Below, in pieces: positions 24,872 through 56,590 of a stretch of DNA of 64,000 bases. The position numbers and the translations under genes are program-made. The notes under the pieces are model-generated. The model worked only from the letters and a program-made list of their open reading frames with translations. It ran no database searches and was not told the origin of the DNA. The first letter of the stretch is position 1. Every line of letters begins with the position of its first letter. The DNA lies in NCBI GenBank assembly GCA_963752155.1, contig CAVVXH010000002.1, positions 256,001 through 320,000 on the forward strand, given 5' to 3'. The DNA is from an uncultured Parachlamydiaceae bacterium. Lineage in GTDB: Bacteria > Chlamydiota > Chlamydiia > Chlamydiales > Parachlamydiaceae.

Positions 24872-25352
24872 ATGAAGTATAGGAAAAATTAAACACAAAG
24901 CGAGACAGTTGCCTGTGGCGCCCCTTACAGGGAAATAACAAATTTTTAAAGCGCCTTGCCATTGGTTCCAGACCTGATATTCTGACATTTGCCTAAAATG
25001 ACAACGTAATCTCCCAGGAGGGCAAATGTCAGAATATCAGGTCTGGAACCAAGGCCAGAACGTTACCTCTCAGAATTAAGTATCTTGTTATTAATTGAAA
25101 ACAACGCTTCTTTCAGTTGCGTAAATCTTGTGGGTAATGTTCTGGCCTTGGTTCCAGACCTGACATTCTGACATTTGCCCTTTAGGAAGCAATGTTATCG
25201 CATCGGCAAATGTCAGAATATCAGGTCAGGCACCAATGGCAAGGCGCTTTAAAAATTTGTTATTTCCCAATAGGGGGCGCCACAGGCAACTGTCTCGCTT
25301 TGTGTTTAATTTTTCTTAGTATTCCGCATCAGCCGATTTTGTTATTCAGGAG
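24872..25352. mobile_element. Family A giant nested palindrome, copy A1
   Basis: About 110 bp outer IR (24883-25315) enclosing four alternating gacctga(t/c)attctgacatttgcc units; asymmetric flanks. Confidence 0.9.
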
Positions 25353-25438
25353 TTAAAATTTCCTGCTAATTCTATTGATTTTTATTAAATTTTAAATTAA
25401 AATGATTACATACATTTTTTTATTTTAAGAGGTTTTAA

Positions 25439-28400
25439 GTGATAAATTCAGATATAAATATAGTAAAACTAAATAATTTTAATTTTTTAGAAAAACAATC
25501 TATAGAAAGTAATGTTGATTCATTTCACGAATTTTTGCCCTTCTCCTTTCTGGAATCTCAAACAGCAACCTTAAAAGAACATGTAGAAAAATTCCAGAAA
25601 CTTCTTTTAAAAGGATCCAATTCAGCAGATGAAAAGATTATTACCTATGAAGAAAAACTTGAGAAGCTACTTCCATTATTTAAAAACAGATTAAATTTAA
25701 ATGTTAATTTAAAGAATTATGGAAATAAACATTATAATCTAATAAATCTTGAACGTTTATTTTCACATTTAGAGTTAAAGGGGATTTTTTTGCCTATTCC
25801 GGTAGGTCTGGAAAGTGACCTTGTAGAAAGTTTTTTAAAATTAAGTAAACCTGAAATTTTTATTCAAAGGAATTTTTTAGCTGAAAAGGTTAAGGAGTAT
25901 CGGCAAGCCTCTACATCATCTAACTTTTTTGATGATCCAGAAGTAAAAAAATCTCTCACTATAATCCAATTGGCTATAACGGAAGCTTTTTTTGAAAGTA
26001 AGGATCATACGAGCCATCCTCTGGTGACTAAAGCGATTGCCAAACAACTTGAGGGGATAAAACAAAGCCAAAGCTATCTTATGGTTCGGAGTACAGGAAG
26101 AGAAGACATAAGAGAAGACACGGATCAAAGTTCTAATGCTGGAGGAAATGTTAGCAAGGCATACGTATTACCGGACGAAGCGCCCTTTTTATCAGCAGTT
26201 GAGGAGGTTATCCATTCCTATTTCAGTGAAACTTCGCTTAAAAATTGCATCAATGCTGGACAAAATCCTTTTGAAGGAAAACCCGAACTTGCAGTAACGA
26301 CGCAAGAGTTAAGTAGGGTGAGCCTGTAGGAGGTTCTACAGTTAAAGAACAAATCCCTATTTCTTTAGTTTTATATAGTTTGGTGCCGATCTATGTTAAT
26401 GGCGAAAAATTTAGGGTAATGAAGGTTAGCGCTGTTCTCGGCCATGGGGAAGCTGTCGTCAATGATGAGGGGATAGGATGTGATACAGCTTTAATTCTCA
26501 TCTCGGAATCTCATCCAGGGGAAATATATATCCGCTACAGCAATCAAGAAAAACCTTTTCGCTTAGGTCCCGTAGGGGATGAAAAAGGAAACATCTCTCT
26601 TAAATCCATTGAAAATCCTGAAGAGCTTAAGAGGGCTCCTATTCTTTCTAAGGAAATGTTGGGACGTCTTTACCACTTAGGCGTCATCACTGAAAAATTT
26701 TTCGACAATTGCCCAGTTGACATGGAAATTGTTATAAAAAATGGTTTGATCCACCCTGTGCAGGCTCGCAAGCTGAAAGAAAATATTCTACTTCCATCAT
26801 ATATTGACTTTGACAAAGTTTGTTTGCTTGAACCTTCTCCCATCGAAAAAGAAGTCAAGGTAGAAAGAATATTATCTGGCAAGGCTTCCGTGATATCGAT
26901 CACTCACCCCGAACAAGTTTGCCATGCTTCAACTCTAGCCAGTGCTGTTAAAAATTATAACGCCGCAGTCCATCGCCTTGTCATTGTTGACCGTCCTGAA
27001 TCAACAGAGTGTTCTCATGCGATCGCTCAATTCAATGAAGCGAATATTCCTTGTCTTTATGCAATCCATCCGGCAGATCTCTCCGCAATGGTTTCAGAAA
27101 TTAGCGTAGAGAAACCTTTGGTGGTTTGCATTCAAACTCCAAGATTGTTTTTATGGAACTCTCAGAAGTCAAAGATGGAAAAATTTTTATTGGAAGGCTT
27201 TACGGAGCATCCAGCACAGATTCCTTCTTCACTCTTCATTTCAAAAACAATTCAGCAAGATCCTTTAGCTCGATTAGTCATTGCTGAAGATTTAAAGCGA
27301 TTGTTGTTGGAGATTCGGACAGAAAAGTGTCACGAAGTCGTTTTAAAGAAAATAGAAGAACTCAAAAAAAGTTTCCATATTGCAGCTTTAAGATCAAAAC
27401 GTAAAGCTCTTAAGGAAATAGTGAAAGGGCATTCGTTATTTCCTGACGACATCGAATCAGCCTATAAAATTCTCAAAGCAATTGAGAAAAGTGTCGATAG
27501 GGCATTTGAAGAGCTTGAAGGGGCCTGGAGAAATAAAGGCAACGGCGAAAGACTTAGAGTTTTATTTCATACTAAAGCATTAGAAGTTTGCCTTCTCGGA
27601 AGAACTAGAAAACATAATGCTCTGCATGAATATTCTGTTATGGATGCCTCCTCCATTTATGAGTCTGCTATGGCTCTTAACTCGTATCAAAAAATGTTTA
27701 CCTATCCGGTACATTTGGCTGATATGGTGAGCGAAGGCTGGCAGTCTTCCGATGAAGGCATCAGAGAAGATTGGTTATCTTTTTTAAAAAAGATGGAACC
27801 TTTGATTGAAAATCAAACAATTCCTAAAGAGAAGATTGATCAACTTAAATTTCTTGTGAAAACGCTTAAAGAAACCCAACTGTTCTCCCCTTGGCTTACC
27901 CTTGAGTTTCCCAAAGTGCATGAGAGTCATCCAAAAGAAAAATTGATGCGCCTTCTTGCGACATTCCCTGACGGGGAGCATACCGCAGTTCATTATTGGA
28001 TCGATAAGTTGGTTTCAATAAAAGCTATGAAGCAAAGAATAGGTCGTATGGCGACTCCTGAATTATTCAATGATGAATGGGAAAAACTAAGAAATTTTAT
28101 CGCTCAATTCTCTCTTGGCAAGGAGGAATATTCTTTAGATGTACTTTTAAAAACACATTCCCCTGTGACATGTTCTATTGCTCTCAAGGCATTTCTTGAA
28201 GTCGTTGAATTAGTCGATTGCTCCATTAAAGCTATGAAAGGCAATCCTGATTGGCCAAGAGAACGAAAATTGATCGTTTTTAAGGAGATGCTCCGTTCAT
28301 ATCTAGATTTGTTAGAGAATTGCTTTTTAAAGCTATTAAATCCTGCAGAGCTCAAGCTGCATGAAAAATGGCCTCTTGAAGCTTATATAATGAAATTGCG

Positions 28401-54867: not shown

Positions 54868-56079
54868 ATGCGTAGAATTTACGATGAAATTATTAAAAAG
54901 CAATTGATTGAAGATGATGTGATGTTATTTTTGTCAGGTCCCAGGCAGGTCGGAAAAACGACTTCAAGCCGACAATCAGCCGAGATGCTTTCAAATCAAG
55001 TGATTTATCTCAATTGGGACGTCCAGGATCATCGAGAAAAAATTCTGGAAGGACAGAGGGCAGTCGCGATTTTGGCAAAAATTGAAGATCTTTCATCACA
55101 AAAGCCAATCATTATTTTTGATGAAATTCATAAGTATTTTGATTGGAAAAATTTTCTGAAAGGTTTTTTTGATGAGTTTCATCATTTAACTAGAATCGTT
55201 GTTACTAGAAGTGCTCGCCTTGATGTCTATAAAAAAGGGGGTGATAGCCTGATGGGGCGCTATTTTTCATATCGAATGCATCCTCTTTCTTTAGGTGAGT
55301 GCATTGGTCTTCTGTATCGGGAAAATGAAATTCATCCACCTACACCTTCGGATTCATCTCTTCTAAACCACTTATTAAAATTCGGTGGCTTTCCTATGCC
55401 TTATATTAAAGAAAATATGCGATTTCTAACTCGATGGCAAAATTTAAGACAACAGCAACTCCTACAAGAAGATATTCGAGATATGAGGAGCTTATTAGAT
55501 CTTAATAAATTAGAAGTGTTAGTTAAGATGCTCATCACACAAGCTGGATCTTTGATGACTTATAGTAATTTAGCGAATAAGATTCGAGTTTCGGTGGATA
55601 CCATTTCAAGATGGATTGAAATTTTAGAATCTTTCTATTTTTGTTTCTTGATTCGACCTTGGTCTCGCAACATCACTCGTTCCTTAGTTAAGGAGCCTAA
55701 AGTGTTTTTATACGATTGGTCTTTGATCAAAGATCCAGGAAATAGAGCTGAGAACTTCGTTGCTTCTCATTTGCTTAAAGCGATACAATACTGGAATGAT
55801 CTAGGTTTTGGTGAATATGGTTTATATTATTTGCGGGATTTAGAAAAACGGGAAGTTGATTTTATTGTGACTAAGAACGATGAAGCTTGGTTTTTAGTAG
55901 AAGTCAAAAAATCTGATAGTGGGGGGATAAGTAAATCCCTTTATCATTTTTATGAACAATCTCAAGCAAAACATGCTTTTCAAGTGGTTATCGAAAAACC
56001 TTATGTTCATCAAAATTGTTTTGATTATACAGTTCCCGTGAGTGTGCCAGCTTTGACTTTTCTTTCACAATTGGTTTAA
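54868..56079 (+). CDS. AAA_14 ATPase with C-terminal DUF4143 / PD-(D/E)XK domain
   Basis: GPRQVGKTT, FDEIHK, GDSLMGR, GGFP, KVFLYD, EVDFI..LVEVK. Confidence 0.92.
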   Translation: MRRIYDEIIKKQLIEDDVMLFLSGPRQVGKTTSSRQSAEMLSNQVIYLNWDVQDHREKILEGQRAVAILAKIEDLSSQKPIIIFDEIHKYFDWKNFLKGFFDEFHHLTRIVVTRSARLDVYKKGGDSLMGRYFSYRMHPLSLGECIGLLYRENEIHPPTPSDSSLLNHLLKFGGFPMPYIKENMRFLTRWQNLRQQQLLQEDIRDMRSLLDLNKLEVLVKMLITQAGSLMTYSNLANKIRVSVDTISRWIEILESFYFCFLIRPWSRNITRSLVKEPKVFLYDWSLIKDPGNRAENFVASHLLKAIQYWNDLGFGEYGLYYLRDLEKREVDFIVTKNDEAWFLVEVKKSDSGGISKSLYHFYEQSQAKHAFQVVIEKPYVHQNCFDYTVPVSVPALTFLSQLV

Positions 56080-56100
56080 ATCCTTGACTGTTTGTTCCTT

Positions 56101-56590
56101 CTAAATAACAAAATCGACTGATGCGGAATACTAAGAAAAATTAAACGCAAAGCGAGACAGTTGCCTGCGGCGCCCCCTATCGGGAAATAACAGATTTTTA
56201 AAGCGCCTTGCCATTGGTGCCTGACCTGATATTCTGACATTTGCCTACAATGATAACGTAACCTCCCAGGAGGGCAAATGTCAGAATGTCAGGTCTGGAA
56301 CCAAGGCTAAACGTTACCTCTCAGAATTTAGTATCTTGTTATTAATTGAAAACGACGCTTTTTTCAGTTGCGTAAATCTTGGGGGTAACGTTCCAGCCTT
56401 GGTTCCAGACCTGACATTCTGACATTTGCCCTTTAGGAAGCAATGTTATCGCATCGGCAAATGTCAGAATATCAGGTCAGGCACCAATGGCAAGGCGCTT
56501 TAAAAATCTGTTATTTCCCGATAGGGGGCGCCGCAGGCAACTGTCTCGCTTTGCGTTTAATTTTTCCTATACTTCATACCCTAATATCGC
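56101..56590. mobile_element. Family A palindrome, copy A6 (near-identical to A4 but with flanks swapped)
   Basis: Left flank is the reverse complement of the A4 right flank and vice versa; core has the same orientation as A4. Confidence 0.92.

Follow-up and report, generated by a model that had tools for sequence, protein, structure and literature searches.

Between positions 24,872 and 56,590 of a 64,000-nucleotide stretch of an uncultured Parachlamydiaceae genome (the window; contig CAVVXH010000002.1, positions 256,001 to 320,000) lie six large nested palindromes, A1 to A6, whose core stands in either orientation relative to two flanks, X and Y. The 23-nt unit from which these family-A repeats are built is, judging from sequence comparison, the terminal inverted repeat (TIR) of a TIRYT-type Y1/HUH transposase. 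We favour, at a probability of roughly two in three, an explanation in which family A is a nest of selfish repeats, TIRYT end-repeats that were probably spread by a single intact gene elsewhere in the genome, and in which the flip and flop forms arose when a doublet of TIR hairpins, held in a frame of fixed polarity, entered one or other mirror site of a distinct X...Y palindrome; one arm would then have been overwritten by a copy of the other. This explanation draws on TIR homology, the position of the gene between family-A units, the mosaic structure of the copies, the fixed polarity of their inner parts, and the presence of both isomers of the host palindrome where family A is absent.

Family A units and a TIRYT-type transposase gene

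Allowing four mismatches or fewer, there are 413 matches to the unit (347 exact) in the genome of the window (G000; C numbers denote its contigs, L numbers extracted loci, and other G numbers further genomes), and these form 148 clusters: 65 of four units, 63 of two, 18 of one, and one each of three and six. Two units around a loop of 25-27 nt make a hairpin, and a doublet of hairpins is the commonest form of family A; single hairpins with a type-c loop also occur, like bare doublets, without frame or arms. Gene context was counted for 143 clusters after five single weak matches had been dropped. None of the 143 lies inside an open reading frame (ORF) of at least 120 aa, though such ORFs span 81% of the genome, and gaps between convergent genes hold 37 of 137 clusters as against 169 of all 955 gaps of at least 200 bp.

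A search of the genome with the PF01797 profile returned two genes, L001 and L002. The first (C10:596682-597707; 341 aa; E 7.8e-14) is intact, is single-copy by profile search, and lies between family-A units, six upstream and four downstream at distances of 132 and 51 bp, an arrangement matched by 2 of 20,000 random placements. The original prediction, made from the letters of the window, had described a non-autonomous element of no recognisable kind, with a HUH- or RAYT-like enzyme encoded elsewhere, and had proposed looking for a RAYT or TnpA(Y1) gene flanked by the repeat arms. Such a gene is present on C10 between family-A hairpins, and the unit does have a recognisable kind, since both its TIR homology and the flanking of L001 mark it as a TIRYT end-repeat. 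The second gene was rejected as the family-A enzyme because a different repeat, family B, flanks it; L002 (C11:39324-42605 of G000) is a canonical RAYT that scores 98 bits against the RAYT family model NF047646, above its cut-off. Family B is also found in the window at 11727-13413, 39100-39145 and 39600-39690, and two inverted B clusters there enclose an ORF at 12181-12807.

Residues H63, H65 and Y122 of L001 are invariant in 112 aligned sequences, and its motifs NHxH, FQ, Y[IV]HLNP and SS, read from an alignment, are those listed for TnpA(Y1) subclass 2.1 in Table 1 of PMC6006769. The profile PF08299 (Bac_DnaA_C) is matched by 106 of the 112 aligned members and not by L001 itself, whose residues 224-326 reach E 7.5e-4 against a DnaA model. 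The predicted structure of L001 (pLDDT 90.7) has its best fold match in TnpA-REP of E. coli (4ER8, E 3.8e-7), and the tail of the model resembles DnaA domain IV (3PVP; TM 0.87 of target, E 1.1e-3). Against NF047646, L001 scores 71.7 bits, under the cut-off of 80. Two further profile matches proved to be dnaA paralogues and were set aside; the possession of two dnaA genes is a trait linked with chlamydiae and fits a host that is likely one of them. Both paralogues (near C17 98593 and C10 587420) are preceded by an inverted array of one and the same 9-bp repeat, of type Q, but Q is common (311 motif matches), so that these arrays may be there by chance.

Related genes connect the unit with this class of enzyme. 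At 9 of 10 loci of related genes there is one inverted repeat of 25-65 bp at each end, the tenth being cut by a contig end, and at L004, L005 and L006 this end-repeat is homologous to the family-A unit. In chlamydial-order loci the TIR consists of a G-rich 10-mer and two tandem 8-mers, and the downstream repeat of related genes codes for the final residues and stop of the protein; a QMSECQA-like C-terminus is found in 28 of 120 protein matches, and the window unit read in that frame gives QMSECQV. Of the 80 distant loci, 75 had flanks long enough to assess, and a flanking inverted repeat was present in 50 of these against none in the control, with a GGGG-like repeat in 38 of the 50 TIRs. The motif GGGGWSAS fits the TIRs of L004-L008 and L012. 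A single-protein scan of genome contigs gave 27 candidate stretches, none of which was confirmed. Across 41 genomes the TIR pattern was counted 375 times in the window genome, 51 in G035, 43 in G001, 14 in G002, at most ten times in nine others and not at all in 28. The G035 gene (L005) has a TIR hairpin on each side, as in the window genome, and the 51 matches there, mostly paired, form an independent expansion as tight hairpins with a 3-nt loop.

The origin of flip and flop

The outer arms and the flanks X and Y belong to a separate palindrome of ~200-290 bp, X-J-D-loop-D'-J'-Y, that has many copies without family A; what had been described as one single element combines two or more repeat families in a mosaic. 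In its fullest form this host palindrome has C/c at its start and E' at its end, and the C arm matches by itself in other genera. What comes after c is family A in 108 cases, X in 10 and other sequence in 8, and what precedes E' is family A in 58, Y in 30 and other sequence in 14; C/c...E' is therefore a frame with two cargoes. In A-free copies of the host palindrome, J is directly followed by the sequence that comes after E' in composites. There are also three collapsed X-J-Y sites. In G001, G019 and G024 the frame holds other palindromes, again between J and a 9-bp arm repeat; 4 of the 19 loci concerned are complete within 250 nt, and L040 is a further example of the arrangement. A short GTAG-containing palindrome stands beside J or E' in several composites (C21:214, C6:223417, C10:643056); its cognate gene was not found.

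The reading of A1 and A4 as X-core-Y and of A6 as Y-core-X, with the core direction unchanged, was correct, and the genome-wide tabulation of flank against core extends it. When the 65 four-unit copies are oriented by their middle spacer, a non-b loop precedes loop b in 51 and the reverse order occurs in none, the other 14 having like loops (a/a 11, b/b 2, d/d 1). The frame runs C..E in 30 copies and E..C in none, with C..C in 14, E..E in two and one side truncated in 19; the symmetric form, with C arms on both sides, is thus the minority, at 14 of 65 against the 30 with C left and E right. Outside C stands X in 14 copies, Y in 9 and Z in 7. The absence of spacer inversion (0/51) and of doublet inversion (0/30) speaks against both replication through hairpins in the parvovirus manner and free recombination at the family-A arms, the two origins that had been suggested for the flip. 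Host palindromes free of family A occur as X-loop-Y (9), Y-loop-X (8), X..X (9) and Y..Y (1) in a tally of 42 rows, where one copy was entered under both X-loop-Y and Y-loop-X and one X..X copy was entered twice. Inner cassettes were compared in the 23 of 30 copies with a named outer flank, the seven left out being six of a/a type and one whose spacer differs. Only 1-2 nt separate some cassettes with unlike outer flanks, and cassettes do not cluster by flank (10 changes, against a shuffled mean of 10.5).

Under the favoured explanation, deletion of the gene would have left TIR-loop-TIR hairpins, and the TIRYT enzyme, by analogy with its structural relatives, may cut and rejoin these as single strands, a mode that would fit the fixed polarity of family A. 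A role in reading the two 8-bp repeats of each TIR is predicted for the DnaA-like tail of the enzyme. The frame would have captured a hairpin doublet and would enter, perhaps site-specifically, at the J-D junction; because the host palindrome has two mirror J-D junctions, entry on the X side or on the Y side would give both isomers without the core ever being inverted. Fold-back template switching of the kind described in PMC5941160, with one arm copied over the other, would then produce A1, A4, A6, the a/a and X..X copies and similar forms, while deletion between direct copies of the unit may account for many of the two-unit forms and gene conversion between copies would be a further mixer. 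Flip and flop are likely inherited from entry into the host palindrome and do not reflect hairpin replication.

It is important to note that several observations weigh against this explanation. One copy among the 19 truncated ones (C19:36415) has E at its left; the copies share descent, so that 51:0 and 30:0 are not counts of independent trials; and the cassette tree is mostly unresolved, with 1 of 18 branches supported. The TIR ends of the window genome, while homologous to those of its relatives, have drifted from GGGGWSAS and do not fit it literally, and the 8-bp tandem, plain to see in chlamydial TIRs, comes out as the best period for just 10 of the 50 distant ones. TIR copies are present in G001 (99% complete, 260 contigs) and G002 (510 contigs), in which no match to the enzyme was found; this counts against strict dependence on it, but fragmented assemblies may explain the absence. 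Finally, the loop of the host palindrome has flipped in copies free of family A as well, which needs arm inversion or two-way insertion and is not explained by two entry sites.

As to genes for GxxExxY proteins, the window genome has 14 PDDEXK_3 matches, three of them near full length. One GxxExxY gene (L045) lies between X-J-D arms, an A end, E' and an arm stand ahead of another (L044), and related genes in G001, G017, G019 and G021 are enclosed by inverted 9-bp repeat arms. The stop codon of L045 falls within flank X of the adjoining palindrome, and at about 39300-39450 the window has a Z-type palindrome whose 9-bp repeat arms resemble the ones next to GxxExxY genes of the L044/L052 type. 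It is tempting to speculate on a three-tier nest, in which REPIN-like TIRYT end-repeats ride an enzyme-less frame that targets the 9-bp arms of GxxExxY cassettes, and in which the GxxExxY protein would be an unrecognised transposase with REP-like palindromes and flip/flop its signature; we regard this as a tentative idea that is more probably wrong than right.

A rival reading that we consider unlikely accepts the TIR origin and explains the X/Y swaps as real inversions that recur in place at the J arms, brought about either by recombination of the host or by template switching between molecules. The A-free host loop does occur in both orientations (9 versus 8) and, as judged by eye, within more than one loop subtype, and according to PMC8604942 and PMC5941160 template switching can make arms uniform and reverse spacers. 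However, asymmetric composites share only J, of about 18 nt, while the longer arms of family A, of about 35-43 nt, stand uninverted. We consider it improbable that a GxxExxY (PD-(D/E)XK) nuclease cassette moves the whole composite, with the TIR hairpins now passengers and the flip the mark of that enzyme. The matches and the genes beside or between arms set out above, and the presence of the frame within such arms in other genera, speak for it, but bare doublets such as A3 and single type-c hairpins exist without frame or arms, G024 has the frame and no PDDEXK_3 match, and a literature search returned no description of mobilising activity by GxxExxY proteins, the titles found not being about flanking arms.

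Other movers were sought by profile and proximity searches for IS110, tyrosine recombinase, protelomerase, Y1 and GxxExxY genes, which tied no enzyme to the frame or the host palindrome. An IS110 origin of the frame was rejected, PF01548 being absent from five of five genomes searched (80-99% complete), and the four tyrosine recombinases, a class named in the original prediction, were rejected as movers because the nearest is 6.4 kb from a cluster. PF05635 gave one sub-threshold match only, and profile searches found neither a further Y1 gene nor a tyrosine recombinase or full GxxExxY gene within 6 kb of the clusters. A protelomerase had been proposed too, and no match to one was found in the genome, which is 80% complete.

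This last negative also bears on the view that family A is one element replicating through terminal hairpins in the manner of parvoviruses, with flip and flop as replication isomers. The giant hairpins are near-perfect, and symmetric products (C..C 14, a/a 11, b/b 2 and E..E 2 of 65) imply fold-back copying; yet the TIR hairpin arms show no inversion and X...Y is a separate element, and the polarity tallies largely refute this view, leaving it very improbable. Least credible of all is an assembly artefact, by fold-back or by flank swap between repeat copies, since the identity of the arms over 85 of 85 nt in three copies (A4 and A6 among them) is offset by the differences within A1, by both isomers in asymmetric composites and A-free hosts, and by diverged doublets in two other species, although rare assembly swaps may have occurred at single loci. 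The contigs of a public run with a small share (0.07) covered scattered short pieces and spanned no family-A copy.

Copies and neighbouring genes in the window

All 24 units of A1 to A6, four per copy on alternating strands, are where they had been predicted, with none expected from 100 shuffles; features below are on the forward strand unless stated otherwise. The three spacers had been called conserved, but the loops vary (types a, b, c and d) and the middle spacer ranges from 111 to 275 nt genome-wide. In copies with middle spacers of 169-275 nt (for example C2:286 and C11:26949) there are further palindromes, H and, within H, K, which sit at one fixed point of the spacer as a fourth and fifth level of nesting. 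The window gave no match in a search of Rfam, one of the databases suggested for comparison.

A4, whose fold has z = -39.7, opens with a remnant of the frame and flank X of the host palindrome (47106..47169); X itself is 47145-47169, and the remnant, from about 47106, extends the copy leftward of the start first given for it, 47145. Next are J (47170..47187), the first arm repeat of the host palindrome, with the likely entry site at its inner end, and C/c (47188..47236), the left end of the frame, which occurs without family A in other genera. Hairpin 1 (47237..47342), assigned in part by TIR homology, comprises an outer TIR (unit 47258-47280), loop a (47281-47307) and an inner TIR (unit 47308-47330). 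The middle spacer S (47343..47430) is never inverted relative to the loops. Hairpin 2 (47431..47534, reverse strand) is inverted and has loop b at 47466-47490; the mirror C arm and J' (47535..47600, reverse strand) were likely copied from the left arm, the 110-nt inverted repeat being 100% identical; and flank Y (47601..47638), ending in E' (47626-47638), is the right end of both host palindrome and frame.

A1 (24872..25352) reads X remnant, J, C arm, hairpin doublet with loops a and b, C arm, J', Y and E', its outer arms mismatching at 5 of 85 positions. A6 (56098..56590) is the flop form, E, Y, J, C arm, doublet (a, b), C arm, J' and X', and its inner cassette differs from that of A4 at two positions. 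Outer arms of ~110 bp, ascribed to full copies, are present on both sides in A1, A4 and A6 only, and A3 has none. In A2 (29656..30086) a C arm and doublet (a, b) are followed by D' of the host palindrome (30013-30044), J' and X', so the right flank said to be the same as in A6 is common in J' and X' and different in its inner arm. A3 (45461..45762) is a hairpin doublet alone, without frame, X/Y or outer arms, and A5 (51136..51458, reverse strand) is a reverse-oriented doublet with loops c and b and a shortened C arm. The six copies are not the full set: a decayed half copy with one TIR and a type-c loop at 39021..39084 is a seventh site that had been overlooked. In the gaps of G001 and G002 orthologous to A3 and A4 no unit stands beside the bordering genes; synteny extends no further than the neighbouring gene, and for that reason the gaps do not count as clean empty sites. 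In G002 a decayed, family-A-like half copy (L076:2513-2687) in the gap matching A5 hints at an old shared insertion.

Genes for AAA_14/DUF4143 ATPases adjoin A1 and A6 (23583-24731 and 54868-56079). Elsewhere the window has three tandem collagen-repeat genes (56612-60079), a U-box and ankyrin protein resembling a host-directed effector (483-2477), an AbiEii-type toxin (9710-10573) and type II secretion genes D/E/F (32955-37020).

Comparison with known systems

What this analysis adds is the location of the flip, in the host palindrome, and of its absence, at the family-A arms; no new replication mechanism is implied. In published surveys, as far as their available text goes, the largest of the RAYT-like classes is that of the TIRYT/Group 1 enzymes, for which no tested substrate is described. 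In the window genome one intact TIRYT enzyme coexists with cognate ends in the hundreds, and its binding site is predicted to be the two 8-bp repeats of each TIR; together with the second, smaller expansion in G035 this opens the step from transposon end to REPIN-like repeat to testing beyond Groups 2 and 3. The host palindrome also suggests GxxExxY nucleases as possible mobile-element enzymes.

The closest counterpart is the TIRtron of Di Nocera et al. 2013 (PMC3733652), where TIRYT genes lie between TIRs and TIR families occur as dimers and clusters, so the kind of system is known. By the available text, both systems have a HUH and Tyr transposase gene enclosed by TIRs, TIRs scattered in dimers or clusters, and a TIR that overlaps the 3' end of the gene; TIRs of the relatives fit GGGGWSAS, a motif of some TIRtron TIRs only. 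Unlike the TIRtron as described there, the gene here lies between TIR-loop-TIR hairpins in tandem and inverted arrays, hairpin doublets are commonest, and about 400 units with ends off the consensus are nested in other repeats; Figure 9 and the supplement of that paper may, however, give copy numbers on a similar scale. According to Quentin et al. 2018 (PMC6006769), TnpA(Y1) subclass 2.1.2 is Bertels' Group 1 and probably the TIRYT of Di Nocera. L001 resembles this class in its NHxH, FQ, YIHLNP and SS motifs and its DnaA-domain-IV-like tail. In the parts of these papers that we could draw on, subclass 2.1 genes have no REP-like sequences alongside (PMC6006769) and Group 1 flanking 16-mers number about 12 per replicon (Bertels et al. 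2017, PMC5581495), whereas there are 375-413 units here; the window genome is thus an outlier on the scale of REPINs. Unusual features are this copy number, for a Group 1 enzyme, and the three-tier nesting.

Family A is not a parvovirus-like rolling hairpin, in that its loops never invert between arms (0/51 and 0/30). It resembles a miniature inverted-repeat transposable element (MITE), as characterised in the available text of 10.1101/2021.07.10.451892, in being non-autonomous and made of two element ends with the gene deleted, and differs in its Y1 enzyme and in the persistence of diverged copies across a genus. A literature search on REPIN or BIME flipping returned nothing relevant. With REPIN-RAYT and BIME systems (Bertels and Rainey, 10.1101/2021.07.10.451892, in the same text) family A shares hundreds of extragenic inverted doublets, a single flanked Y1 gene and mosaic clusters. 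Unlike in those systems, the unit is not a short self-palindrome, a GTAG/CGTC foot is absent from the flank consensus as judged by eye, and L001 falls under the RAYT family cut-off, with a tail modelled as of double-strand-DNA-binding type. Family A works like a REPIN-RAYT system, yet fails the definition of a REP.

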